Assembly: GCA_963779415.1 (NCBI GenBank)
Contig: CAVZYA010000001.1
Span: 516,519 to 580,518, forward strand
Source: an uncultured Acidobacteriota bacterium
Lineage (GTDB): Bacteria > Acidobacteriota > Thermoanaerobaculia > UBA5066
Direction of reading: 5' to 3'
DNA length: 64,000 nucleotides
Below are positions 7,467 through 21,214 of the stretch, one piece after another. Position 1 is the first letter of the stretch, and every line of letters begins with the position of its first letter. The notes beneath the pieces are model-generated. The model worked only from the letters and a program-made list of their open reading frames with translations. It made no database searches and was not told the DNA's origin. The position numbers and the translations under genes were made by a program.

Positions 7467-8966
7467 ATGGAGGTCCAAAACATGGCGGAAAAAAGAAATG
7501 TCGAGATCAAGAGCCGACAGGACACGCTGGCTCTGATCACTCCAGAAATCAGGCCCTGGCCTGTCTCACCACCCCCTTCGCCGGAGGAAGTGAAGAAGTC
7601 CTACGCCAAGCGGAAAGCCGAGGTGTTCGGCCAGTGGCTCGAAGACAACATGCGTCTCGAGTATTCCTGGCAGAAACCCGAGGCCCTGCAGGGCCTGAAG
7701 GTCCTCGACATCGGGCTCTGGAGGCTGGGGCACAAGTTCGGCGCCTCCACGCTCGCGCAGGCCGGTGCCGAGGTGATCTGTATCGAGCCCCCCACGGGCG
7801 ACCCGCTCAGACAGCTGACCCCCTTCGGGCGGGAAGAGTACATGCTCGCCGACAAGGAAACCGGCGAGAAGTGCGGCCTCGGGTTCATCGACATACACCG
7901 GAACACGCACTCGGTCACCCTCAACGTCGAGACTCCGGAGGGGCAGGAGCTGTTCAAGAAGCTCGCGGTCCACGCCGACATCGTCCTTGACGGGATGCTC
8001 CCCGGCTACATGGACAACCTCGGGATCGGGTACCGGGACCTCTCCCAGATCAACTCCCGCCTCATCTACGTGAACGTCATGCTCCGGGGATCCTGGGGCC
8101 CGGCAAAAGACCGCGTCTCCAAGTTCGGCCAGTGGGAACTGGATCCCTTCGCGCAGGCGACCAATTCGTACATTCACAACACCGGCTTCGCTCAGGACGC
8201 GCTGCCGCGCGGCAAAGGGGGCGACCCGACCCGGGCCGGGTCGTGGCTCGCCGACTATGTCGCCGGCGAGCAGGCGGCCGTCAACGCCCTCGCGGCGATC
8301 TACTGGCGGGAAGAGGTCAGCAATGAGGGGCAGTTCATCGAGGTGACCGGCGCCGAGACCCTGATGGACATCCTCGACTTCGACATCTCCTGGTACGGCT
8401 TCAACGGCAGCATCAAGGCGCGGACAGGGGGATGGGACCCCAACCTGAACCAGTATGCGTGGAACCCGTGCCGGGACGGCTACATGATGATCGGCGGCCA
8501 GAGCGACCGGCTCTGGTACCGGATCGGCATGTGCATCGAGCGGGACTTCCCGCAGTTCGGCCGGCTCATCCACGAAGACCCCTTCCTGAAGGAAGTCGGC
8601 GCGCGGAACGCCCTCCACGCCCTCATCAAGACCTACACCGTCACGACGCGCTGGCTCCGGGAGACCAATCGGATCGAGGCCGAAGAGAAGCTGATGGACT
8701 ACGAGATCGCGGCCGGCCCGCTCCTCTTCATCGACGAGACCTGCGAGTTCCCCCACTTCAAGTACCGGCCCTGGGTCTACAACTGCGAGACGGACTACGG
8801 GACCGTCCTCTACTCGACGGTCAATAACGCCTATCAGATGAGGACGCCGCACCGGGTCAAGTGGCTCGGGAGACGGCTCGGCAAGGACAACTACGACGTC
8901 TACCAGCGCTGGGCCGGACTGGGCCCGAACAAGGTGGACCAGCTCAAGGGAAAGGGGGCGATCTAA
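7467..8966 (+). CDS. CoA-transferase family III (CaiB/BaiF/Frc-like), paralogue 1
   Basis: [39 protein letters not shown], plus an Asp-containing active-site region [20 protein letters not shown] second in-frame ATG at 7482 is an alternative start. Confidence 0.88.
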
Positions 8967-10354
8967 TGGCCGGCGAGATCAGACCCAAGAGTGCGGGCGA
9001 GCTGCATGAGATGCGGGCGCCCTACGAGGAGTTCTGCCGGAAGGCCTTCGATCCCGGCAACGAGCACTCGAAGCCCGAGTCGCTGAAGGGGATCCGGTGG
9101 CTCTCCTGCACGATGTACATCTTCACGCCCCACTCGGCCGCGAACCTGGCCGAGCTGGGCGCCGAGGTGATCAAGATCGAGATCCCCCGGATGGGCGACG
9201 CCATGCGGCACACCTCGCCCTTCAACGAGGCGTACCTCTATCCCCTCCACGACACCCGGCCGGGGACGGGAACCGGGTTCGGGTTCACGAACGCCAACCC
9301 GAACAAGCACTTCATCTCCCTCGACTATCACGTACCGGAGATGCGGGAAGTTTTCTACAACATGGTCCGGCAGAGCGACGGGCTGACCGAGCTCTACCGT
9401 CCCGGGACCTTTGACCGCTGGAAGATGAGCTACCCGACCCTCGCGCAGATCAACCCGCGGTTCATCTACGTCTGGGGCGGCGGGTTCGGCTACGGGCCGA
9501 AGGTCTTCGGGGGCTCCTATGACATCCTCGCGCAGTCCCACGCCGGGTTCGCGTCCATCACCGGAATGCACGACTTCATGGGCGGCCACTGCTCCAAGTC
9601 ATCCAACTGGGTCATGGACTGGGCCTCCGGCACCCTGATCACGTTCGGGATCCTCGCCTCCATTCTCTGGCGCCGGAAGACCGGCCTCGGCACCATGATC
9701 GAGTTCTCGCAGGTGCAGACCTCCACGATGTTCACCGAGTATGCCGTTCCTCTTTACGGCCGGTTCGGCATCGTCCGGCAGCGGTGGGGAAACTGGGACA
9801 CCCAGCTCTGCGCCCACGGGATCATCCTTTGCGGCAAATCCGACTTCCCCGATGCCCAAAACCCGCAGGACAAGTTTGACGCCCGGTACGTCATGGTCTC
9901 CGCCTTCCAGGATGCGGACTTCAAGGAACTCTGCAACGTCGTCGGCCGGAAAGACATCTACGATAAATACAAAACGCACAAGGACCGGCTCGACCCCCGG
10001 GCCCAGGTCGACATCTACCAGGCGCTCGAGAAATGGGCCGGAGACAAGACCCGGGCGGCGGTGGTCAAGGTCCTGACCGACGCCGGCATCCTCGCCTCCC
10101 CCGTCATGAACGACCGGGAAGTCTACGAGTACGAGCACTACCGCGAGCGGGGCACCGTCCGCTGGATCGACGACCCCCTCTTCGGCGACTTCCTCCTGCA
10201 GGCCGGCTACAGCGCCGGCCACCTGGCCAAGACCCCGAGAAGGACGAACTGGATCTGGCGGCCCGTTGGCGCCGACAATGTCAAGATCTACCGGGATCTG
10301 CTCGGCTATCCACTGAGCAAGATCGAGGAGTGGTATGGCAAGGCCTACATCTAA
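8966..10354 (+). CDS. CoA-transferase family III (CaiB/BaiF/Frc-like), paralogue 2
   Basis: ORF 8861..10354 trimmed to ATG 8966 (TAATG junction with the upstream stop). Motifs [42 protein letters not shown] and [19 protein letters not shown]. Confidence 0.88.
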
Positions 10355-10368
10355 AAGGAGGCAGCGCC

Positions 10369-10854
10369 GTGTGTGACATCATCTGGTGCAAGAAGCAGGT
10401 TTCCGGCAAGACGTGCAACACCGTCAATTACCTGGACCCGTACAACTTCTGGAACTGGGAAGGCAAGGTGAACTGCGCCGAGTGCGGGACCGTCTACGCC
10501 ATCCACATGATCCAGGGCTTCATGTACAAGGGGCCAACGGAGAAACCCGGAGAGAAGCCCGACATGAGTCCCCTCTACGCCGACAAGCCGCTGGAGGGCT
10601 ACCGGTGTTACCTTCCCGGGATCGAGGGCAGGACGAGGCCTTGGCAGTGCCTCCCCCGACATATCTACCTCGGCCACGCGGACACGGTGAAGTGGAGCCT
10701 CCGCGGAAGACCCGTGCGTGGCTGGCGTCCTCAGCCGAAGTCTGCAGGCATCGCTGGAAGCTTCGGCCACAAGTGGGATATCGAGAAACTCTCACCGGAG
10801 ATCTGGGCCGAATACCAGGAGAAGCTGAAGAGCGGGAAGCTGAAGGACTGGTGA
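10369..10854 (+). CDS. Hypothetical protein with an N-terminal Cys cluster (zinc-ribbon-like)
   Basis: ORF 10033..10854 trimmed to GTG 10369, just downstream of AAGGAGG. The product starts VCDIIWCKKQVSGKTC..(18)..CAEC. No family recognised. Confidence 0.6.
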   Translation: MCDIIWCKKQVSGKTCNTVNYLDPYNFWNWEGKVNCAECGTVYAIHMIQGFMYKGPTEKPGEKPDMSPLYADKPLEGYRCYLPGIEGRTRPWQCLPRHIYLGHADTVKWSLRGRPVRGWRPQPKSAGIAGSFGHKWDIEKLSPEIWAEYQEKLKSGKLKDW

Positions 10855-10876
10855 GACATTCAGAAAGGAGCGCCAC

Positions 10877-11137
10877 ATGGCCGAGGGAAAACAGTTAACG
10901 CCTGAAGAATTCCTGGCTACGGTTCTCGTGCCGCAGTATGGCCGGGAAAGCGGGCACATGTGCTGGGATTGCAAGCACTTCAAACCGGTTCTGAAGGGCT
11001 CCAAGTTCCCGCCCACCGACACGATCGGCTGGTGCACGCAGATCCACTGGCCCTTCTACTGGTGCGTGACGGACTTCAACGTCGTCAAGAAGTGCTACGC
11101 CTTCGAGAAGGGCATTTACACCTTCAAGAAGTTCTGA
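10877..11137 (+). CDS. Small Cys-rich hypothetical protein (possible Fe-S or Zn protein)
   Basis: 86 aa, with GAAAGGAG 6 nt upstream. Cys pattern CWDC-x20-C-x9-C-x9-C. Confidence 0.65.
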   Translation: MAEGKQLTPEEFLATVLVPQYGRESGHMCWDCKHFKPVLKGSKFPPTDTIGWCTQIHWPFYWCVTDFNVVKKCYAFEKGIYTFKKF

Positions 11138-11138
11138 C

Positions 11139-11432
11139 ATGGAGGAGAACGTCCGGAAGGAGCTGGATACGCTCACGGGGATGGTGCTGACCTGGAAGAA
11201 GGACTATCTCGGGTCGGTATCATCCGATGAGGACTGCGAGTACCTCGCTCGGGAATTCCTGGACGAGGTGGAGACCCACGTCTACCCCTACGTGAGGAGG
11301 CTCATGGAATGCAATTTCCTCACGGGACCGGAGGCGACGGAGTTTCTCGACTCCTGCTATCGCCAGGCAGAGGAGCTGAACAAAGCCATCCAGCAGCCGG
11401 ACGCCAAACAGGGTGAAACGATAGGAGGGTAA
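11139..11432 (+). CDS. Hypothetical protein (acidic, probably helical)
   Basis: 97 aa. The ATG lies 1 nt after the upstream stop, and G/C at codon position 3 is high. No family recognised. Confidence 0.6.
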   Translation: MEENVRKELDTLTGMVLTWKKDYLGSVSSDEDCEYLAREFLDEVETHVYPYVRRLMECNFLTGPEATEFLDSCYRQAEELNKAIQQPDAKQGETIGG

Positions 11433-11434
11433 AC

Positions 11435-11854
11435 ATGGCTGAGAAATGCCGAGTGGGGGTCTGCGGGTACGACCCCGTTCTGGTGAAGGGATACGTCAAG
11501 ACAGGCGAGCGAGCCCTCTGGTGGCACCTGTCGGACGAGGTGTACGAACAATACCAGGTGAAGCCGGGTGACACCGTCACCGGGAAGATCCTGGCGGTTT
11601 ACGACGGGACCGGCACGAAGACGGCCTCCCCGAACGAGCCCTTCGAGTGGAAGTGCCCGAAGGAGTCGGGCCTGGCGGTCCTCCTGCCGCCTGCGACCAT
11701 CGTCAAGTTCAAGCTCTCCGCTTTCCATTTCCTCGAGCTGCTCGTGGAGAAGGTCGGCGGAAAGGACGTCTATCCCGGCAAGGAGCAGATGAGCTTGAAA
11801 TGGTGGCCCGAAGAGAGGATGAAGCTCGACTACAAGGTGCCTTACATCGAGTAG
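11435..11854 (+). CDS. Hypothetical protein
   Basis: 139 aa. AGGAGGG lies 5 nt upstream and the ATG is 2 nt after the upstream stop. N-terminal CRVGVC. No family recognised. Confidence 0.65.
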   Translation: MAEKCRVGVCGYDPVLVKGYVKTGERALWWHLSDEVYEQYQVKPGDTVTGKILAVYDGTGTKTASPNEPFEWKCPKESGLAVLLPPATIVKFKLSAFHFLELLVEKVGGKDVYPGKEQMSLKWWPEERMKLDYKVPYIE

Positions 11855-11948
11855 AACACAGGACGCTCTCTCCCCCGCTCCCTTGAAGCGCCGGTTCCGT
11901 TCGGACCGGCGGGCAAGGACCGGGCGGGGCGAAATCAGTCGCTCACGG

Positions 11949-11993
11949 CCCCCTCTCCTGGCCCTGAAGCACCAGGAGAGGGGGATTCTTTTT
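11949..11993 (+). terminator. Rho-independent terminator closing the CoA-transferase operon
   Basis: Perfect 13-bp stem ccccctctcctgg (11949-11961) / ccaggagaggggg (11972-11984) with a 10-nt loop, followed by attcttttt. Confidence 0.75.
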
Positions 11994-12048
11994 CATGTAT
12001 CCTCGGCGATGGAACGGTGACATTCGATCGGAAGGGAGAATCGCGTAC

Positions 12049-12291
12049 ATGACAGAACACGACAAGCCGAATGAAGAGGGCTACACGGCTCCGGCGTACG
12101 TCGACCCGGCGATGGGCGACAGCCCCCCCGTCGGAGGCCTGATTGACAACGAGGCCGTCTGCCGGGACTGCATGACCGCCGCCGAGGAAGTCAGCATGCG
12201 GCGCGGGTTTGTCGACCCCGTCTCCGAGCAGCAGGCCAAGGCGAAGGGGACCGTCTGCGCCCGGTGCGGCAAGAAACTCGTCGCCGCGTAG
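12049..12291 (+). CDS. Small zinc-ribbon-like protein (two CxxC knuckles)
   Basis: ORF 11995..12291 trimmed to ATG 12049, which has GGAAGGGAGAA just upstream. 80 aa with CRDC-x29-CARC. Confidence 0.55.
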   Translation: MTEHDKPNEEGYTAPAYVDPAMGDSPPVGGLIDNEAVCRDCMTAAEEVSMRRGFVDPVSEQQAKAKGTVCARCGKKLVAA

Positions 12292-12334
12292 CGCCCCCTT
12301 CAATCCAGCCGGACGGGGCGGGCGGAATCACCTC

Positions 12335-12748
12335 ATGGCAGAGCCGGAAAAGGCCCCACGACGAGAGGTCGTCGAGCAGCTCCTGCCGCTCGTGGTGGAG
12401 TTGATTCCAGGGCAGGCGGCTGAAGGCCTGATCGAAGTGCTCGAGCCGGGCAGCTACGAGGCCCATTCCCTCCGGACGCTTTGCGAGAATCTCCTCAGGA
12501 GAACGAACTGGAGCGTGGAGGAGCAGCAGGTCCTGGAGGACATCAGGAGACAGCTCGACGGGGGCCGGCTCCTCTGCCGGGGCCGACCCGTCGACGGCCG
12601 GGCTCTGGATCTCGCGGTGGTCGAGGAAACCGAAGCAGGCGAGAAGTATCTCTATGTGCCTGTCCACGCCATCAGGCCGCAGGAAGGCGGAGGCGCGGCA
12701 CCCCGGATCGCGCACCAAAGTTCAGCAGACGAGAGCAGGAGCCTATGA
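12335..12748 (+). CDS. Hypothetical protein
   Basis: ORF 12209..12748 trimmed to ATG 12335. Codon-position-3 G/C is high on the + strand, and the antisense ORF 12191..12718 looks compositional. No family recognised. Confidence 0.55.
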   Translation: MAEPEKAPRREVVEQLLPLVVELIPGQAAEGLIEVLEPGSYEAHSLRTLCENLLRRTNWSVEEQQVLEDIRRQLDGGRLLCRGRPVDGRALDLAVVEETEAGEKYLYVPVHAIRPQEGGGAAPRIAHQSSADESRSL

Positions 12749-12951
12749 GTTCCAGGTTCGTAGTCACGGAGAGCACCACGGTGGACGATGTTGCCGCGGC
12801 GGGCCGGCCCGACCCCCTCTACTGCAAACTCGGCCTGGGCCAGCAGGCCCGCGTCCTCGCGGACGAGATCGATGCCGCGCTTGGTGGGGATACGAGCTGC
12901 GGGGGCGCCGGACTCGGATATGTTCCGGACATCGTAGAGGTTGAAGAATAG
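12745..12951 (+). CDS. Small acidic-tailed hypothetical protein (candidate modifier or adaptor)
   Basis: ATG 12745 overlaps the upstream stop (ATGA). 68 aa: MSSRFVVTES..VLADEIDAALGGDTSCGGAGLGYVPDIVEVEE. Confidence 0.45.
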   Translation: MSSRFVVTESTTVDDVAAAGRPDPLYCKLGLGQQARVLADEIDAALGGDTSCGGAGLGYVPDIVEVEE

Positions 12952-12964
12952 CCTGGAGAATCGC

Positions 12965-13159
12965 GTGGAGATAGAGGCTCCCAAGGACTGGGACCCGAAG
13001 TGCCCAAAGTGCCAGGAAGAGCTTCGACGAATGCTCGAGCTGTCACAGTCGGTCTACGAGGACCTCGACCACGGCGCGGGGTTGTACCGGTTGCCGTTGC
13101 CACCTTGCACGCACCATGCGGCGCAGGGCGAGCACAAAGACGCAGGAGGGGTCGCTTGA
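12965..13159 (+). CDS. Small Cys/His protein ending ..DAGG-VA (candidate Ubl/sulfur-carrier-type modifier precursor)
   Basis: The track ORF starts at TTG 12941, but I prefer GTG 12965 (GGAG 6 nt upstream). 64 aa with CPKC-x32-CTHH and C-terminus EHKDAGGVA. Codon position 3 is mostly G/C. Confidence 0.45.
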   Translation: MEIEAPKDWDPKCPKCQEELRRMLELSQSVYEDLDHGAGLYRLPLPPCTHHAAQGEHKDAGGVA

Positions 13160-13199: not shown

Positions 13200-14411
13200 A
13201 TGATGGATCTGCTGGAGTCCGACCTGGAGCTCGTCGTCCGGTCAGGATTCATCTACCTGCCGCTCCTCTTTGATCCTTCGGTGGCGACGGAGATCGAGGG
13301 GAACGTGGGCAATCACCTGGTCGCCCGGGACGCCGGCAGGCATTTCGTTCGGACGATGAGCCTGCGATCGCTCGTTTCAAGCTACGAGGCTCTCTGGCCG
13401 AAGTCGTACGAGAAGTTGCGGCGGTCGAAGCTGTGCCGGTTCTCCGGGGACCTTTCGCCGGCCGAAACGGGCGCCAGCGAGCGGCTGAAGGAGATCCTCT
13501 TCTCCGTCATGCCGCACTTCGTCAGGAGGGGGAAGCGGCTCGACAGGAGGCGGCTGACCGAGGAGGACGTGCTGGACCTCATCGAGGAGAGAACCGGACT
13601 TCCCGGCGGATACGCCATGGCTGCAGCCAGCGCTCGGGATCCGGGCTCCATCCGGCAGATCCTCGTGGAACTCGAGGAACGCCGCCCGGCGGCCGAGCCG
13701 CTGCCCGAGGGCCGAATGTCTGCGCGGACCCTCGCGGATTGGCTTCTGCGCGCCCAGGAAGCCCGGATTCTGGAAGAGGAGAGCCAGCGACTGACGGGGT
13801 TTCTCTCCGCGCAGGAGGGCCTCGATACGAGGGCGGCCAGGCGGCTGGCGATTTTGCGGTGCGTCGCGGAGAAGGGGACGTTGGAAATCGACGGATTCGG
13901 CTTTCTGAGGACAGGACCCGGCGACGACTACGTGATCTACAAGCGCACCGGCGAGTTCGCTCTCAAGGACTACTACGGTCGGCTCTATCTGTTTCCGGAT
14001 TGCCGGGTTGCCGTGTCGACGGCCGCTGGCCTCAGGCCCTTCGTCGTGGAGACCTACAAGCATCCGTTTCTCGAGGCCCACGACTCCGGCCAGGAGATCT
14101 GCCTGGGCCGCACCACGGCGCGCCGCTTCTCCGGAGCGGCGGCGATCGTCGAGGCTCTGCAGGAGGGAATCAACGCCCTGCTCCATGGCTACAGCAGCCG
14201 GCGCCGAAACGGGTACCACAGACTGGAGGGACTGTTGAGGTCGGTCCGGCTCCCTGGCCCGGACGATCCCGGCTACCCGGAACCGCCGGACGACAGGCCC
14301 CGCTCCAAGCGGCACATCCTGGACGTCGACTTCGACGACTACCGCATCCCGGCCGATCACCCCGGGATCGTGTCGGGTCGGGTCGAGATCACCAACGACG
14401 TCGTGCCGTGA
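13200..14411 (+). CDS. Unknown protein with a putative UBC/E2-like C-terminal domain
   Basis: ORF 13116..14411 trimmed to ATG 13200, since the upstream gene ends at 13159. The C-terminal part reads DDYVIYKRTGEFALKDYYGRLYLFPDCRVAV..LRPFVVETYKHPFLEAHDSGQEICLGRT, which parallels the E2 core (..HPN..G.ICL..). The N-terminal ~230 aa are unassigned. Confidence 0.6.
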   Translation: MMDLLESDLELVVRSGFIYLPLLFDPSVATEIEGNVGNHLVARDAGRHFVRTMSLRSLVSSYEALWPKSYEKLRRSKLCRFSGDLSPAETGASERLKEILFSVMPHFVRRGKRLDRRRLTEEDVLDLIEERTGLPGGYAMAAASARDPGSIRQILVELEERRPAAEPLPEGRMSARTLADWLLRAQEARILEEESQRLTGFLSAQEGLDTRAARRLAILRCVAEKGTLEIDGFGFLRTGPGDDYVIYKRTGEFALKDYYGRLYLFPDCRVAVSTAAGLRPFVVETYKHPFLEAHDSGQEICLGRTTARRFSGAAAIVEALQEGINALLHGYSSRRRNGYHRLEGLLRSVRLPGPDDPGYPEPPDDRPRSKRHILDVDFDDYRIPADHPGIVSGRVEITNDVVP

Positions 14412-14884
14412 TGACGACGGACGACACCCTCTCGCGGGACGAGCCGCCCCGGGCGACGCCGGATCTGTTGCGGGACATAAGAACCATGCGCGCCGGCAGG
14501 CGGCGGAAGGAGCCCTTTCGGACGAGCCTCTACTCCCGGGTCGGGGGTCTGGTGAGGCGATATGGCCTGGACGAGGCGTTCCTCCGGGCGCTCGACTCCC
14601 CGGGCGGCTTCTCCCGGGACGGCCGTCCGGATGCCGTCCGGCCGAAGGGGAAAGCGCCCTATGCTCCTCCCCTCTTTTTCCTTTCCACGGAGAGAGAGCA
14701 CCGCGTGACGACGGTCATCCTGGAGAAAGTGAAGAGCCCGTTCCTCGCGTACGCCACGTCGCCCGACGAGATTCTCCTCTGCGAACGCCTGTTCCGTGAG
14801 GACCCGTCCCTTTCTCAGGAAACGCTCGCGTGCCATCATTTCGAGACGTTGATGCCGGCCGGAGCGGATTCCGGGCCGGGCTGA
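14411..14884 (+). CDS. Hypothetical protein
   Basis: ATG 14411 shares 1 nt with the upstream TGA (TGATG). 157 aa. No family recognised. Confidence 0.6.
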   Translation: MTTDDTLSRDEPPRATPDLLRDIRTMRAGRRRKEPFRTSLYSRVGGLVRRYGLDEAFLRALDSPGGFSRDGRPDAVRPKGKAPYAPPLFFLSTEREHRVTTVILEKVKSPFLAYATSPDEILLCERLFREDPSLSQETLACHHFETLMPAGADSGPG

Positions 14885-14899: not shown

Positions 14900-16000
14900 G
14901 TGGAACGGATTTCGCCGCAACGCCGCCGGGAGATCGGGGAGAGAGTCGGCGCATTCCGCGAGAGCCAGGTCGGCGACGCCGTCAATCAGATTCTCGAGTT
15001 CGACAAGACGCCGGCCGACCTCAAGGCCTACATGGACCGGTTCGTCATCGGCCAGGAGCAGGGGAAGAAGATCATCTCCGTCGGCATCGCCTACCATTAC
15101 CGGAGGCTCGCGGCGGCCCTCAGGCGCGCCGTCGTCGAGAACGGCGAGGAGCTGGGCGCCGCCTTGCACGGCGCGGCCACGCCGAAGGCCAACATCCTGA
15201 TCGTGGGGCCCCCCGGCTGCGGGAAGACCTACACGGGCGAGGTCGCCTCCCGGCTCGTGGGGGTGCCGTTCGCCGTGGAGGACCTGACGAAGTTCAGCGA
15301 AACGGGCTACGTGGGCCAGAACGTGAGCGACATCCTCCTGGACCTGCTGATCGCGGCCGGCGGCAACCCCCAGGTGGCCCAGATGGGCATCGTCTACCTG
15401 GACGAGATCGACAAGATCGCCGCCGAGCCGATCGTCTCGAAGGACGTGTCGGGGCGCGGGGTCCAGAAGGGGCTCCTCAAGCTCGTCGAGGGGGCCGAGA
15501 ACACCATCGACCTGGGCCAAGAACGGATCTCCCTTTCCACCCGACACGTCCTGTTCATCGCAGGAGGCGTGTTCGAGGGGCTGGAAGGAACCGTCGGAAA
15601 GCGGATGGAAAGGGATCGTCTCGAAGGCGAGTGGAAGGACCACCTCCTCACGGACGACTTCGTCGGCTGCGGGATGGAGCGGCAGCTCATGGGGAGGTTC
15701 CCCGTTCGGGCCGTCTACGACCCGCTCAGCGTCGAAGACCTCAAGAACATCCTGCTCGAGAGCGAGGAGAGTCCGTCCCGCGCCTACATCGACGACCTGA
15801 AGGCGTGGAACATCGAACTCCGGTTCACGGACGGCGCTCTCACGGAGGTCGCGAGGCGCGCGCAGCAGGATCGGACGGGCGCCCGGGGACTCATCGGCAT
15901 CCTCCACAAGGTGCTTCTGGAGGACATGTACCGGCTTCCGGGCGTCCACACCGGCGAGCTGGTGGTGGACGAGAAGTACATCCGGGAGCGGCTCGGGTGA
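14900..16000 (+). CDS. ClpX/HslU-family AAA+ ATPase (minimal, with no zinc-binding N-domain and no IGF loop)
   Basis: GTG start after GGAGGAGAG. Motifs [27 protein letters not shown], Walker A GPPGCGKT, pore-1 loop ETGYVGQN, Walker [28 protein letters not shown] and sensor-2 TGARGL. Confidence 0.88.
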
Positions 16001-16803
16001 GATTCCGGGGGCTCTCGGAGCTGAAGCGCGCGCCATGCTTCGAGGCTCCCGTGGGAACCCTGCCGGAGTGGATCCGGATGACGCGTCACTCCCTCGCGAA
16101 GGCCTTCAAGATCAACGAGCTCGTCCGGTCCGTCCACGGGGACAGCTACGAGTGGTACGGATTCACCGTCGCCGAGCGGAGCGATCCGGAGCTGGTCGTG
16201 GACGTTCTTCTTCCGGCCAACGACGAGAACTTCACGGACCACACCCGCGTCGCACCCGAGGCGATCGACGCGTCGAGAGAGTCCCTCCCCCGGGATCGGG
16301 TGATCAACGGCTGGATCCACTCCCACGGGGCCCTGCCGTACGAAGGGTTCTCCTTCGTGGACGAGAGGAACCAGGAGGCCGTGACCGATTACGTGAACAC
16401 GCTTCTCAGGAAGCCGGTGGCCAAGAAGGAGATCCTGATCAGGGACCTCGCGATCCTCGTCGAGGGCCGCTTCTCGGAGAAGGAGCTGGAGCAGGGAAGC
16501 GTCGCGCTCATCACCGACGCCCCCGTCAAGGAGGCCCGGATCATCGAGACCATATACGGAAGCTTCTGCTTCGCCATCGTCATCGGCGACGACGGCTGGC
16601 ACAGGCAGCAGGTCCATTACCGCAGGCGGGGCATCCTTTCCGGGCAGACGACCGAGGAGAGCCGGGACACCGACATCGTCCTTTCGGGCGACGCGCGGCC
16701 GCTCACCGAGGCGGAGATCCAGATGCTGGCGGACGAGGTCCGCACCCGGATCCGGCCGGGCGTGGCCGTTCCACCCGAGCGGTTCGAGCGGGAGGCGACA
16801 TAA
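15997..16803 (+). CDS. JAB/MPN (JAMM) metalloprotease-domain protein
   Basis: JAMM signature: Glu in SYEWYGF, then [18 protein letters not shown] (HxH..S..D). The start is either GTG 15997 (GTGA overlap with the ATPase stop) or ATG 16078. The ~100-aa C-terminal extension is unassigned. Confidence 0.8.
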
Positions 16804-16840: not shown

Positions 16841-18118
16841 ATGGAGACGGGACCGGCTCGCGAGAAGGCGCATGACCCGAGGCTGGACCGCCAGCTCCGG
16901 ATCCCGAACTGGAACCAGCGGGCCCTCGAGGAGGCGCGGCTCGCCGTCTTCGGCGACGACGACCTTCTCGCCTCGCTCTACGTCCTCTCCGCCGCGGCCC
17001 TCGGCGTGAACGACGTCGTCCTGATCGCGCCCGCCTGGAATGAGAAGCTGATCGAAATCGCCCGCCAGCTCAATCCGAGGCTCAGGCTGGCCCTCCTCGA
17101 GGGGCTCCACACCCACCCGGTCCTGGAGGAGCTCTTCAGGCCCTGCACGGCCATCGTGGACCTCACCCGCTACGCTCTGGCCAACAAGCTTCTGCTGGAG
17201 ACGGGCTACCGGTCGGGAATTCCGGTGATCCGTGGGTTCTGCCTCGAGAAAGACGGGTGGGAAGGGCTCTCCGTCTTCACCTACAGGCGCGGCCGGGAGT
17301 GGGAGGAGCTCCGGGAGCTCGTCTCGCCCTCCAATCTTCCCTGCGACCACTTCGACGACGCGATTCTGGCCCTCGTCGCGGCCGGCATCGCCCTGGAAGA
17401 AACCAAGAACGTCATCATGGGACACCGGGTGTCGGAGGAGCTGATCGGCTACAGGCGGCCGAAGGTGGTTCCCCTGGAGCCCGACTCCGGCGTCATCATC
17501 GTCGGCGCCGGCGCCCTGGGTAACTTCGTCGGGCTCGGACTGGCCTGTACGGGGCTCCGGCGAATCACGGTCGTCGATCCCGACGTGGTGGACGTGACTA
17601 ACCTCAACAGGCAGGTGCTCCTGGCCGGCGGCGTAGGCCGAAGCAAGGCCGAGGTCCTCTGCGAGCGCCTGCACTCCCTCTTCGGAATCCGGGCGGAGGC
17701 CCGGGTGGCTTATTTCCGGAAGGACTCCGAGCTCGACGCCTCCGACGCTGTCTTCGATTGCGTGGACAACTTCGAGACCCGGGTGATCCTGAGTGAGAGG
17801 TGCCGGGAAGAGGGAAAGGTGCTCATCAGCGGCGGCACGGGCCCTCAGGCCGGACAGGTCATCGTGTTCGATCCGGCGCGCCCGAGCGAAACGCCCGCGG
17901 AGGTTCTGGGACTCTACGAAATCGTCGAGAGGCGGGAGATCGACGCCTTCCGGAGGGAGACGGCGTCCTGCGCCTACCAGCCCGATCCGTCCGTCGTCAT
18001 GACGAATCAGATTATCGGAGGATTGATGGCCGATTCCTATCGTAGGCTCCTGGCCGGAGAGGAGACCCCGAATATCTTCTACGATTCGAGGAACGACGCC
18101 CGGATCTTCGGGGGGTGA
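16841..18118 (+). CDS. E1-like ThiF/MoeB/HesA-family adenylyltransferase with tandem (degenerate + active) Rossmann domains
   Basis: The active domain has VIIVGAGALGNFVGLGLACTGLRRITVVDPDVVDVTNLNRQVL and a Cys in RETASCAYQPDPSVVMTNQIIGG. The N-terminal half repeats the fold outline (LDRQLRIPNWNQRALEEARLAVFGDDDLLASLYVLSAAALGV) but lacks GxGxxG. Confidence 0.88.
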   Translation: METGPAREKAHDPRLDRQLRIPNWNQRALEEARLAVFGDDDLLASLYVLSAAALGVNDVVLIAPAWNEKLIEIARQLNPRLRLALLEGLHTHPVLEELFRPCTAIVDLTRYALANKLLLETGYRSGIPVIRGFCLEKDGWEGLSVFTYRRGREWEELRELVSPSNLPCDHFDDAILALVAAGIALEETKNVIMGHRVSEELIGYRRPKVVPLEPDSGVIIVGAGALGNFVGLGLACTGLRRITVVDPDVVDVTNLNRQVLLAGGVGRSKAEVLCERLHSLFGIRAEARVAYFRKDSELDASDAVFDCVDNFETRVILSERCREEGKVLISGGTGPQAGQVIVFDPARPSETPAEVLGLYEIVERREIDAFRRETASCAYQPDPSVVMTNQIIGGLMADSYRRLLAGEETPNIFYDSRNDARIFGG

Positions 18119-18191: not shown

Positions 18192-19415
18192 ATGAGCAGC
18201 GAGAACGACGTCGCGCAGACTCAGGAGGACCAGCCGATCGGCTGGCAGCGCCTCGGCGACGTCCTGACACCGCCGATTCCCGGCTTCGAGGACCTCCTCT
18301 TCCTTCCGAGCCTCGACAATCAGTCCTCCAACATCTACGTCCTGCCGGGGGACTGCGTAACGATCGTGGACCCGGGGAACGATTACACGGCCTTAATGGA
18401 GCTCTTCCCTGCGAGAGCCAGGCCCGAGGACGTCAGGAAGATCGTCCTGACGCACGGGCATTTCGACCACGCCATGGGGGCGCTCGAGTTCCTCAGGACG
18501 TATCCGGATCGCCCCACGGGCGCGCGCATCGAGCTGATCCTCCACGAAGGGGGTCCCGACCAGTTCAAGCAGACGGCGAGGGAGCAGGGCGCCTCCGTGA
18601 CCGAGGTACGGGGCGGGGAGACTCTCGAGCTGAGCGGCCTTTCCTTCGACGTGATCTACACGCCAGGCCATACCATCGACGGCATCGCCCTCTATCACGC
18701 CCCCTCGAGGACCGTCTTCAGCGGCGACGTCGTGCTGCCGCTCGCGGTAGCCGGACCCGATCCCAAGGCCGGGGGAAGCCTGGACCAGTACCTGTTCGGG
18801 CTGAGGGCGTTGCTCGCGAGGGAGATCGAGAACGTCCTCCCGGGCCACGGCCCCGTCGTCGGCCCGGGCGGGAGGAAGGTCATCGAGCAGACCTACGAGG
18901 CCGTCATGATGAAGCTCCTGGGGGTCGAGAAGCCGATCCCGTGGATCCAGGGTGCCATTCAGCTCGCGGAGCGCGGGCTGCTGGAAGAGGCCGTTTTCTG
19001 CGCCGGGAAAGAGCTGGCCCGCGACCCGGGGCACGCCAAGGCCCTCGAGCTCAAGGCCGTGTGCCTCAACGATCTCGGGCGGTCGTCTGAGGCCCTCGAG
19101 GTCCTGGATCGGCTGCAGGAGCTGCAGGCCGGCGACGATGCGTTCATCCACGTCGGCAGGGGATATGCCCTCATGGGGCTTGGCCAGTTCGAGGAGAGCG
19201 TCAAGTGCTTCGACGCCGCTCTCCGCATCACGCCGGGCCTGAGGGACGCGCTCGTCTACAAGGGGATGGCCCTCCATCTCTCGGGGAACCACGAGGAGGC
19301 CATGGACATCGAGCCCTTCAGGACGGAGTTCATGGGGCGGTTCCGGAGCGAGCTGCTCAAGGCGTCGCGGCCCGCCCCGAAGGATGGCCTCGCCGAAGGC
19401 ACTGGAAAGGCCTGA
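18192..19415 (+). CDS. Metallo-beta-lactamase-fold hydrolase fused to TPR repeats
   Basis: AAGGAG lies 5 nt upstream. Motif VLTHGHFDH (HxHxDH) and TPGHT. The C-terminal ~150 aa are TPR-like helical repeats (..AKALELKAVCLNDLGRSSEALEVLDRL..). Confidence 0.85.
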   Translation: MSSENDVAQTQEDQPIGWQRLGDVLTPPIPGFEDLLFLPSLDNQSSNIYVLPGDCVTIVDPGNDYTALMELFPARARPEDVRKIVLTHGHFDHAMGALEFLRTYPDRPTGARIELILHEGGPDQFKQTAREQGASVTEVRGGETLELSGLSFDVIYTPGHTIDGIALYHAPSRTVFSGDVVLPLAVAGPDPKAGGSLDQYLFGLRALLAREIENVLPGHGPVVGPGGRKVIEQTYEAVMMKLLGVEKPIPWIQGAIQLAERGLLEEAVFCAGKELARDPGHAKALELKAVCLNDLGRSSEALEVLDRLQELQAGDDAFIHVGRGYALMGLGQFEESVKCFDAALRITPGLRDALVYKGMALHLSGNHEEAMDIEPFRTEFMGRFRSELLKASRPAPKDGLAEGTGKA

Positions 19416-19540: not shown

Positions 19541-21214
19541 GTGAGCACGATTCCCGAAAACTATCTTCCCCCGAAGGAGTTCCAACCCGAGCGGATCTAC
19601 AAGCTGAAGGAGTTCGCGAGCTACCCGGATCCGCTGAACAGCACCGAGGAGCTACTCGACAAACAGATCGCCGCGGGCCGGGGCGACAGCCCGGCGGTCC
19701 TCTTTGCGGACAAGGTCCTGACCTACAAGCAGCTTCTGGGGGCGTCCTGCAAGATCGGGAACGCGCTCCGGAAGCTGGGGGTCGAGGAGTCGGACCGGGT
19801 GTTGCTCCGCTCTCCGAACGTTCCGCCCGCCCTCTTCACGAACTTCGGGGTCCTGAGGCTCGGGGCGGTCATCGTCCCGACCTCTCACATGCTCTCCCCC
19901 CCGGAGATCATCCACATCGCCAACAACGCCGAGGCGAAGGTGATCGTGGTGGCGTCCGCGTTCCTCGAAGGGGTCATCAAGGCGCGCCCGAACCTGAAGA
20001 CCGTCAAGCACGTCATCGTCTTCGGCGGCCAGCCCGAGGAGCTGAAGAAGCAGGATCTTCTCTGCTACGAGGAGCTCGTCGCGAACGAGGCGCCGGCCTT
20101 CGCCCCGGTACGCCGTCCGCGCAAAGCCGTCGCCGTTCTTCTTTACACCTCGGGCACGACCGGCCTGCCGAAAGGGACGGTCCACTACCAGGAAGAGGCC
20201 CTGATCGTTCCGGACACCTTCGGCAAGTACGGATGGAACGTCCAGCCGGAAGACATCATCTGCGGACCCGCGCCCATCTCGCTGGCCGGCGGATACTCGA
20301 CCGTGGCGACGATCCCCTTCCGGTTCGGCGCCGCGGCCTCCCTGATTCCCAAATTCACGCCGGACGGGCTCTTCGAGACGGTCCAGAATCACAAGGTGAC
20401 GATCCTGAGCGCCCTCCCCACGGCGTACCGCAAGATGCTCGAGGTTCCCGGCGCGGAGAAGAAATACAACCTCTCCACCCTCCGCGTCCTGACCGGTGGC
20501 GGTGAATCGCTGACCGCAAAAACCTACAACGACTGGAAGGGGCGCTTCGGCCAGGAGATCTACGAGGGGCTCGGCACGTCGGAGATGATGTACGTCTTCG
20601 TCTCGAGCGTGGTGACGCGGAAAGTCAAGCCCGGCGCGATCGGCACCGCCGTCCCCGGTTACGAGATCCAGGTCATCACCGAGGAGGGAAAGGTCGCCAA
20701 GCCCGGAGAGCTGGGCCGGCTTTACGCCCGCGGGCCGACGGGGACGCTCTACTGGCGCCCGTACGAGGACGGCGGCAGCATGCTGGAGAAGCAGAAAGCC
20801 GTCATCCGCGAGGGGTGGGTGCTCGTCGGGGACTTCTGCACGATAGACGACGACGGGTACCTCAGCTTCGTGTCGCGCCAGGAGGACCTGATCAAGAGCT
20901 CCGGCTACCGGATCGGACCCGAGGAGGTCGAGGACGCTCTTCTCAAGCACCCGGCCGTGGCGGACGCCGGCGTGATCGGGGTTCCGGACCCCGTCCGGGG
21001 CCACAACGTCAAGGCCTTCGTCCTCCTGAGGCCCGGACAGACGCCGAGCGACGAGCTGAAGCAGCAGATCATCGACAGTTGCCGAGATCACATCGCGATC
21101 TACAAGCTTCCCCGCATCATCGAATTCACGAGCGAACTCCCGCGCACCCTCCAGGGGAAGCTCCTCCGGCGGGTTCTGCGGGACAAGGACAAGGGGGCGG
21201 CTCCCGCGAGCTAG
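19541..21214 (+). CDS. AMP-forming acyl-CoA synthetase (benzoate-CoA-ligase-like)
   Basis: ORF 19205..21214 trimmed to GTG 19541, after AGGAGGA. AMP-binding motifs LLYTSGTTGLPKG, GYRIGPEEVE and a C-terminal ..LPRTLQGKLLRR. Confidence 0.9.
   Translation: MSTIPENYLPPKEFQPERIYKLKEFASYPDPLNSTEELLDKQIAAGRGDSPAVLFADKVLTYKQLLGASCKIGNALRKLGVEESDRVLLRSPNVPPALFTNFGVLRLGAVIVPTSHMLSPPEIIHIANNAEAKVIVVASAFLEGVIKARPNLKTVKHVIVFGGQPEELKKQDLLCYEELVANEAPAFAPVRRPRKAVAVLLYTSGTTGLPKGTVHYQEEALIVPDTFGKYGWNVQPEDIICGPAPISLAGGYSTVATIPFRFGAAASLIPKFTPDGLFETVQNHKVTILSALPTAYRKMLEVPGAEKKYNLSTLRVLTGGGESLTAKTYNDWKGRFGQEIYEGLGTSEMMYVFVSSVVTRKVKPGAIGTAVPGYEIQVITEEGKVAKPGELGRLYARGPTGTLYWRPYEDGGSMLEKQKAVIREGWVLVGDFCTIDDDGYLSFVSRQEDLIKSSGYRIGPEEVEDALLKHPAVADAGVIGVPDPVRGHNVKAFVLLRPGQTPSDELKQQIIDSCRDHIAIYKLPRIIEFTSELPRTLQGKLLRRVLRDKDKGAAPAS

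Follow-up and report, generated by a model that had tools for sequence, protein, structure and literature searches.

We analyzed a stretch of 64,000 nucleotides (positions 516,519 to 580,518 of the forward strand of contig CAVZYA010000001.1, from an uncultured Acidobacteriota bacterium; hereafter the window) and found that residues ~203–346 of a 403-amino acid protein encoded at 13200..14411 (+ strand) are probably a diverged domain of the ubiquitin-conjugating (UBC) fold, acting as the E2 of a chromosomal ubiquitin-like (Ubl) modification operon. An earlier note, made from the letters of this DNA alone, had proposed an E2-like domain in the C-terminal part of the protein. The predicted fold, the motif and the gene context all speak for this proposal, whereas membership in a known E2 sequence family finds no support from any profile match. 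The protein (hereafter the E2-like protein) is labeled "hypothetical" and consists of a lineage-specific N-terminal region (residues 1–~200), a UBC/E2-like catalytic domain (residues 203–346, 13806..14237, + strand) that is predicted to comprise a helix, a six-stranded meander, a HP...C loop and a long helix, a predicted disordered linker that bears an invariant RRRNGYH, and a conserved tail (residues 378–399). Most likely, its family is new and unannotated and belongs to an operon that has the gene order of the bacterial Bil systems, is unrelated to them in sequence, and includes an added unfoldase.

The motif lies at 14061–14102, where the codons CAT CCG TTT CTC GAG GCC CAC GAC TCC GGC CAG GAG ATC TGC encode HPFLEAHDSGQEIC, followed by LG. 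His288-Pro289 (14061..14066, + strand) is the proposed counterpart of the His-Pro in the "HPN" motif of E2s, with Phe290 at the position of the Asn, and Cys301 (14100..14102, + strand) is the proposed catalytic, thioester-forming cysteine. Counted in the open reading frame (ORF) 13200–14411, the codons place His at residue 288 and Cys at residue 301 and confirm the spacing of 13 residues read in the earlier note. The replacement of the HPN Asn by Phe, which the note had also described together with a His-to-Cys spacing longer than the usual ~10 residues, proves to be a family trait, with Phe290 in at least 90% of the members; Gln298 is nearly invariant. The pattern HP.[LIVM].{4,9}[GQ].[IV]C has a single match in the six-frame translation of the whole window, which is the motif itself. 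The motif is thus a real observation, strongly non-random and far beyond chance. The start of the protein at 13200 (MMDLLE) agrees with the N-termini of its homologues, which lend no support to an upstream in-frame ATG at 13116.

We found 667 matches to the E2-like protein in a set of 5.8 billion proteins, nearly all of ~403 amino acids and labeled "hypothetical", and 207 cluster representatives of the family in an exhaustive search. Across 28 full-length homologues (42–67% identity), H288, P289, C301, C268 and the sequence RRRNGYH are invariant. The exhaustive search also yielded proteins of 380–590 amino acids that share only residues ~176–345 with the query and have unrelated N-termini. A 31-sequence alignment of this shared domain (25–35% identity to the query) has no more than seven invariant columns, namely G234, F265, Y286, H288, P289, C301 and G330. 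Among all the retrieved family proteins that cover the site, Tyr286, Pro289 and Cys301 are each present in 268 of 268, and His288 in 267 of 268. The earlier note had made its reading depend on the conservation of the Cys among homologues, and Cys301 is conserved throughout; its invariance at 25–35% identity argues for catalysis by this residue. Cys268 (14001–14003) was also considered as the catalytic residue, but 22 of 264 members have Ala or some other residue in its place, so that it is not essential.

The full-length AlphaFold2 model of the E2-like protein has a predicted local distance difference test score (pLDDT) of 74.7. Its confident block is composed of a helix (210–225), strands (227–273), the HP…C loop and a further helix (313–330), while residues 332–374 are predicted to be disordered. 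The strand-like stretch that had been noted before the motif is resolved by DSSP into four strands (244–249, 253–256, 262–265 and 269–273), and the helix-like stretch after it agrees with helix 313–330. The elements of the UBC fold (an N-terminal helix, an antiparallel β-meander, an active-site loop and the long helix α2) are present in the predicted domain, and Cys301 sits in the model 12 residues ahead of helix 313–330, in the loop between the meander and α2. Canonical eukaryotic E2s such as UBE2S and UBE2D2 are the best structural matches of the predicted domain. UBE2S was again the best match in a Foldseek search against PDB, which however gave nothing significant (E 0.23, TM 0.39). The structural prediction favors the UBC-like fold proposed earlier over an unrelated one. 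The assignment to a UBC-like fold is most likely specific but remote, resting as it does on predicted models. The N-terminal part had been left unassigned in the earlier note, and searches of Pfam, NCBIfam, PADLOC and PDB indeed found nothing for its ~200 residues. The RRRNGYH motif (14199–14219, residues 334–340) is invariant among orthologues though it is predicted to be disordered (AlphaFold pLDDT<50); distant relatives retain only G-Y…P-Y..L at this position. The E1 or the ATPase encoded downstream may dock at this motif.

Gene context is the strongest independent support for the E2 reading. Four related contigs, which were examined first, showed the same neighborhood, and a scan of GTDB genomes provided 52 loci, mostly from Desulfobacterota (Syntrophobacterales, Desulfobaccales and Desulfobacterales), Methylomirabilota and Binatia; one of them (L041) comes from a cultured organism, Desulfoferrobacter suflitae DRH4. 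The core of the operon is colinear and on the same strand, and encodes in this order a small protein with a conserved diglycine (GG protein), the E2-like protein, a conserved protein p158, a ClpX-like AAA ATPase, a JAB-like protein and an E1. These genes are present in 44, 50, 48, 43, 39 and 36 of the 52 loci, respectively, and the gaps in the counts mostly coincide with contig ends. In the window, the stop codon of the E2-like gene overlaps the start of p158 (GTGATG). No promoter-like or intergenic terminator-like sites were found between 12.3 and 18.1 kb, the sole terminator-like match being located inside the E1 gene. The overlapping stop and start codons and the lack of internal terminators are consistent with a single operon.

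The first gene of the core encodes a candidate Ubl modifier precursor of 137 amino acids (12335..12748, + strand), with an invariant ...RAIKPQEGG, the GG at 12686–12691 and an unconserved tail of 18 amino acids. Among its 44 orthologues, six end exactly at the GG, eight have a one-residue tail and three are fused with a GNAT acetyltransferase, and most have 3–20 unconserved residues after the GG. Judged from these sequences, such variable tails after the GG are typical of a modifier that would need a peptidase to expose its diglycine. The fused GNAT domain follows the diglycine in several Desulfobacterota (loci L002, L013, L016 and L017), and in locus L004 (7339–7926) a zinc-ribbon-like p72 homologue is joined to the GG protein behind the diglycine; cleavage by the peptidase would release such fused domains. 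In locus L001, free GNAT genes are found inside or beside the operon (11943–12401 and 15241–15726). Two other candidates for the Ubl were considered and rejected, a 97-amino acid ORF (11139–11432) that ends in IGG and the FGG terminus of the E1 itself, since neither C-terminus is conserved in orthologues.

Downstream of the E2-like gene, p158 (14411..14884, + strand) follows directly in 48 of the 52 loci and has no family match. The next gene encodes a ClpX-type AAA+ ATPase (14900..16000, + strand; 43/52 loci), which matches ClpX in NCBIfam (1.4e-76, below the curated cutoff) and in PDB (2e-56). Its alignment to E. coli ClpX starts at ClpX residue 66, past the zinc-binding domain, and the alignment gaps fall exactly at the RKH and IGF loops, with Walker A/B and the GYVG pore loop intact. 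In the absence of IGF loops, canonical docking to ClpP is not expected. It is unusual for a ClpX to lack the zinc-binding domain, RKH loop and IGF loop while retaining the Walker motifs and GYVG, and this would imply a ClpP-independent function. The JAMM/JAB-like metallopeptidase (15997..16803, + strand; 39/52 loci) has invariant Glu25 and H81-x-H83-x8-S92-x2-D95. Weak matches to Prok-JAB were obtained in 4 of 15 members, and an in-register match to an Rpn11-like PDB sequence is non-significant (E=1.1). The gene probably starts at the GTG at 15997, overlapping the ATPase stop codon, and not at the ATG at 16078, because the residues upstream of the ATG match the N-termini of orthologues. The E1-like activating enzyme (16841..18118, + strand) is composed of a degenerate N-terminal ThiF-like half and an active adenylation domain, and matches Pfam ThiF in two stretches (1.7e-35). 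GxGALG, NLNRQ, DxxDN and C377 are invariant in 36 E1 orthologues, and the N-terminal half is without the glycine motif. Its PDB matches are generic members of the ThiF family only.

The same partners accompany distant relatives of the E2-like protein, which have no more than this domain in common with it. The contig of P0228 (493 amino acids) carries eIF-5A, L37ae and prefoldin; P0228 is preceded by a 181-amino acid protein ending in …AIVSAEEGG+KGF and followed by a Prok-JAB protein and then a tandem-ThiF E1, with metallo-beta-lactamase (MBL) and kinase genes nearby. P0217 (435 amino acids) is preceded by a 126-amino acid GG-protein homologue ending in RPQEGG+YLC and followed by Prok-JAB and an orthologous E1. 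Its contig belongs to a DPANN archaeon, because the EF-1α encoded on it is 78–83% identical to Nanoarchaeota/Woesearchaeota sequences. P0250 and P0264 are likewise preceded by small proteins with …EEGG or …QQGG plus tails, and P0211 is followed by a ClpX-like ATPase. The domain thus keeps its association with a GG protein, JAB and E1 as far out as homology can be detected, in bacteria as well as in archaea. The different N-termini of the lineages would fit a catalytic module that stays constant and is joined to recognition modules that vary. On a DPANN-type contig (L059, 455–9882), the archaeal form of the module, with a GG protein, an E2-like protein, a JAB protein of 558 amino acids and a tandem-ThiF E1, has an MBL gene, a cytidylyltransferase-like gene and a gene for a Ser/Thr protein kinase at its flanks.

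Several results weigh against the E2 reading, and most of them come from sequence comparison. The earlier note had named the UQ_con (PF00179) and Prok-E2_A to Prok-E2_E families as the place to look. None of these profiles matched any of the 31 domain sequences even at E≤10, and the full protein searched against Pfam gave no UQ_con match and no Prok-E2 match at E≤1. Scans with NCBIfam and PADLOC returned nothing relevant for the protein or the domain sequences, a profile search of PDB sequences gave 0 matches, and phmmer likewise gave none. With default settings, hhalign assigned a probability of 0.1% both to an alignment with six human E2s and to one with the published E. aridi BilB sequence; in the default alignment with the human E2s, the β4 segment YLFPDCRVAV was matched to the E2 segment YPFKPPKVAF, after which the register was lost. 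No bridge to annotated E2s was found in a profile search of the 5.8 billion proteins, which returned only unannotated fragments of the same family. The domain also departs from canonical E2s (PF00179) in its details. HPN lacks its Asn, there are six meander strands and not four, an insertion separates β4 from the HP, the His-Cys spacing is 13 instead of 10, and helices α3 and α4 are absent, their place after helix 313–330 being taken in the model by the disordered residues 332–374 and then the short conserved tail. Finally, nothing similar in sequence to the GG protein was found among Ub, NEDD8, SUMO, ThiS, MoaD and the PDB sequences. What the domain does share with canonical E2s is the order of a helix, a β-meander, [FY]-x-H-P-x-[ILV], G/Q-x-I-C-L and a long helix, and the distance from His to Cys, 13 versus 10 residues, is still similar. 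When gap penalties were relaxed, an alignment of hidden Markov models spanned the whole domain and placed Y-x-HPF on Y-HPN and Q-x-ICLG on G-x-ICLD, with H288, P289 and C301 on H75, P76 and C85 of UBE2D2. The score of 38.7 compares with 26.7±4.9 for decoys, and 3 of 150 column-shuffled decoys scored at least as high (p≈0.02), so that this alignment is suggestive only.

Among the known bacterial systems, Bil (BilABCD, type I/II) has the same gene order, Ubl-E2-JAB/deubiquitinase-E1, with p158 and the AAA ATPase inserted in the bacterial loci of the present system. Both have separate E1 and E2 proteins, and BilD, the E1 of Bil, is built of an inactive and an active adenylation half, as is the E1 here. 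A further likeness is that the Ubl of Bil needs C-terminal trimming to expose its Gly, that no E3 is present and that the E2 is presumed to pick the targets. The two systems differ in that BilB has a conserved His after the Cys, whereas here His-Pro precedes the Cys by 13 residues, on the same side as in eukaryotic E2s. Unlike BilB, the E2-like protein has a ~200-amino acid N-terminal region and a conserved tail, and unlike in Bil, the E1 has no evident inserted CYS domain. As far as their sequences can tell, no component of the operon is a member of Bil. In the Bub (6E/DUF6527) systems, BubB uses a Ser and Ser/Tyr oxyester chemistry with a DUF6527 partner, whereas the present system has an invariant Cys and separate proteins; no DUF6527 match was found among the neighbors in the window and in the related loci examined. 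Cap2 (type II CBASS/6A-MBL) is an E2-E1 fusion that acts on CD-NTases and is accompanied by a Cap3 JAB and a CD-NTase or MBL partner, whereas the E2-like protein and E1 are separate genes here, and the E1 is matched by the models for Cap2 and 6A-MBL only in a generic way, far under the cutoff. The arrangement of tagging genes beside a ring-shaped AAA+ translocase with an intact GYVG loop resembles Pup-Mpa/ARC, ubiquitin-Cdc48/proteasome and ClpX. In contrast to these tag-plus-unfoldase systems, the conserved core here contains no protease, and the coupling is read from synteny. Our literature searches brought up no paper in which ClpX appears together with E1, JAB or Ubl systems, and we could find no counterpart of the ClpX-like ATPase and p158 in the bacterial Ubl operons described in the literature.

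A pathway can be proposed from these components. The JAMM peptidase would trim the tail of the GG protein and expose ...PQEGG. The E1, to judge from its conserved ThiF catalytic motifs, would adenylate the terminal Gly and load the modifier on Cys377, from which it may pass to Cys301 of the E2-like protein. His288-Pro289 would shape the active-site loop as in canonical E2s, and Gln298 may supply the amide that is missing through the change of the HPN Asn to Phe. The lineage-variable N-terminal region might pick targets directly, with no E3, as proposed for the E2s of Bil. In the most speculative step, the ClpX-type ATPase, probably together with p158, would unfold or extract the tagged proteins or remodel components of the pathway; for this "tag then unfold or extract" function, synteny is our only guide.

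The same chemistry of E1, E2, Ubl and JAB could also serve anti-phage defense like Bil, Bub or CBASS, which we consider unlikely. All characterized bacterial E1/E2/JAB operons so far are defense systems, the gene order is identical to that of Bil, MBL proteins accompany the related "6A-MBL" defense systems, and GNAT or kinase accessories occur in some loci. Against such a role, no PADLOC model matched except for the generic E1, and the family, unlike Bil, has no match among 50,697 phage records or 72,556 plasmid records. Its sequences diverge in step with the taxonomy of their hosts, and in several phyla the operon lies amid metabolic genes, so that inheritance looks vertical and chromosomal. 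For these reasons, we think that the operon is more likely to have a housekeeping or regulatory role and to pass vertically with the chromosome than to be a mobile phage defense.

The main mechanistic rival of the E2 reading is a sulfur-carrier pathway, in which a ThiS/MoaD/CysO-like GG protein would be trimmed by the JAB and adenylated by the ThiF-type enzyme to be turned into a thiocarboxylate, with Cys301 relaying a persulfide. The GG protein with removable tails, the ThiF-type enzyme and the JAB are a signature of sulfur carriers as well, and this must be counted among the points that weaken the E2 reading. A GG protein, a ThiF enzyme and a JAB form the known architecture of systems of the CysO-Mec+ and QbsE-QbsD type. 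In addition, the best PDB matches of the E1 include Uba4, ThiF and MoeB, and metabolic genes for CoA-transferase and acyl-CoA synthetase are adjacent in some loci. The conserved core, however, encodes no rhodanese, cysteine desulfurase or sulfur-acceptor biosynthetic enzyme, the tandem layout of an inactive and an active half in the E1 is typical of conjugation E1s, and it is hard to see what a ClpX-type unfoldase would do in sulfur transfer. Moreover, the domain that carries the Cys is predicted to have the UBC fold, which has no known role in sulfur relay. On this evidence, we regard a sulfur-carrier pathway as improbable. Less probable still is a non-catalytic adaptor of the UEV/RWD type that hands the GG protein or its conjugates to the ATPase while the E1 conjugates directly, as in archaeal SAMP and Thermus TtuB, since such domains characteristically lack the Cys, whereas here Cys301 is invariant and His-Pro stands at an E2-like position.

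Beyond the E2 assignment itself, we propose only tentatively, and as somewhat doubtful when taken as a whole, that the operon encodes an undescribed, vertically inherited Ubl conjugation pathway of anaerobic bacteria (Desulfobacterota, Methylomirabilota and Binatia) and DPANN, with a new family of E2s in which the His-Pro…Cys of eukaryotes is retained, a link in bacteria to a ClpP-independent ClpX-type unfoldase, and a housekeeping or metabolic function instead of phage defense. If true, prokaryotes would have in it a "tag-then-unfold" counterpart of ubiquitin-Cdc48/proteasome or Pup-Mpa. CBASS Cap2, Bil and Bub have only recently been shown to be genuinely ubiquitination-like, and all of them are tied to phage defense. 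The E2-like enzyme is unrecognized by current profile libraries, its modifier, E1 and JAMM partners are equally unannotated, and the family is chromosomal in environmentally important anaerobes and in DPANN archaea. If confirmed, the system would widen the diversity of E2 active sites (HPF…Q-x-I-C), add a non-defense example of prokaryotic Ubl conjugation and offer a tractable model of tagging coupled to AAA+ unfolding before eukaryotes. Annotation pipelines also gain four new families to model.

Other genes accompany the operon in the window. A small ORF of 72 amino acids (WDPKCPKCQEEL...DHGAGLYR; 12941..13159, + strand), zinc-ribbon-like and accessory, is present in 8 of the 52 loci, and a small putative zinc-ribbon ORF with CRDC…CARCG (11995–12291) in 1 of 52. 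An ORF of ~107 amino acids found in some related loci is absent from the window. Farther upstream, two paralogous family-III CoA-transferase genes (7467–8966 and 8966–10354) precede four small ORFs, of which some are rich in Cys (10372–10854, 10877–11137, 11139–11432 and 11435–11854). This CoA-transferase block (7467–11854) is 72–83% identical to that of L001 and L004, except for the 97-amino acid ORF at 11139–11432 (only 45–60%), whereas the Ubl module is far less conserved, at 43–47% identity. The block adjoins the Ubl module in 6–10 of the 52 loci, from several phyla, and could be a target or partner enzyme complex.

An MBL-TPR (tetratricopeptide repeat) protein with a Pfam match (18192..19415, + strand) is encoded by an accessory gene of variable position, which is located downstream of the E1 in the window and upstream of the GG protein in L001 and L004. 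In 14 of the 52 loci, this gene occurs together with the CoA-transferase block and the Ubl module; the "6A-MBL" E2-E1-JAB systems, too, typically have MBL partners. Downstream of it lies an AMP-binding acyl-CoA synthetase-like gene (19601–21214), which is probably unrelated to the Ubl module because it adjoins the module in only 1 of the 52 loci.

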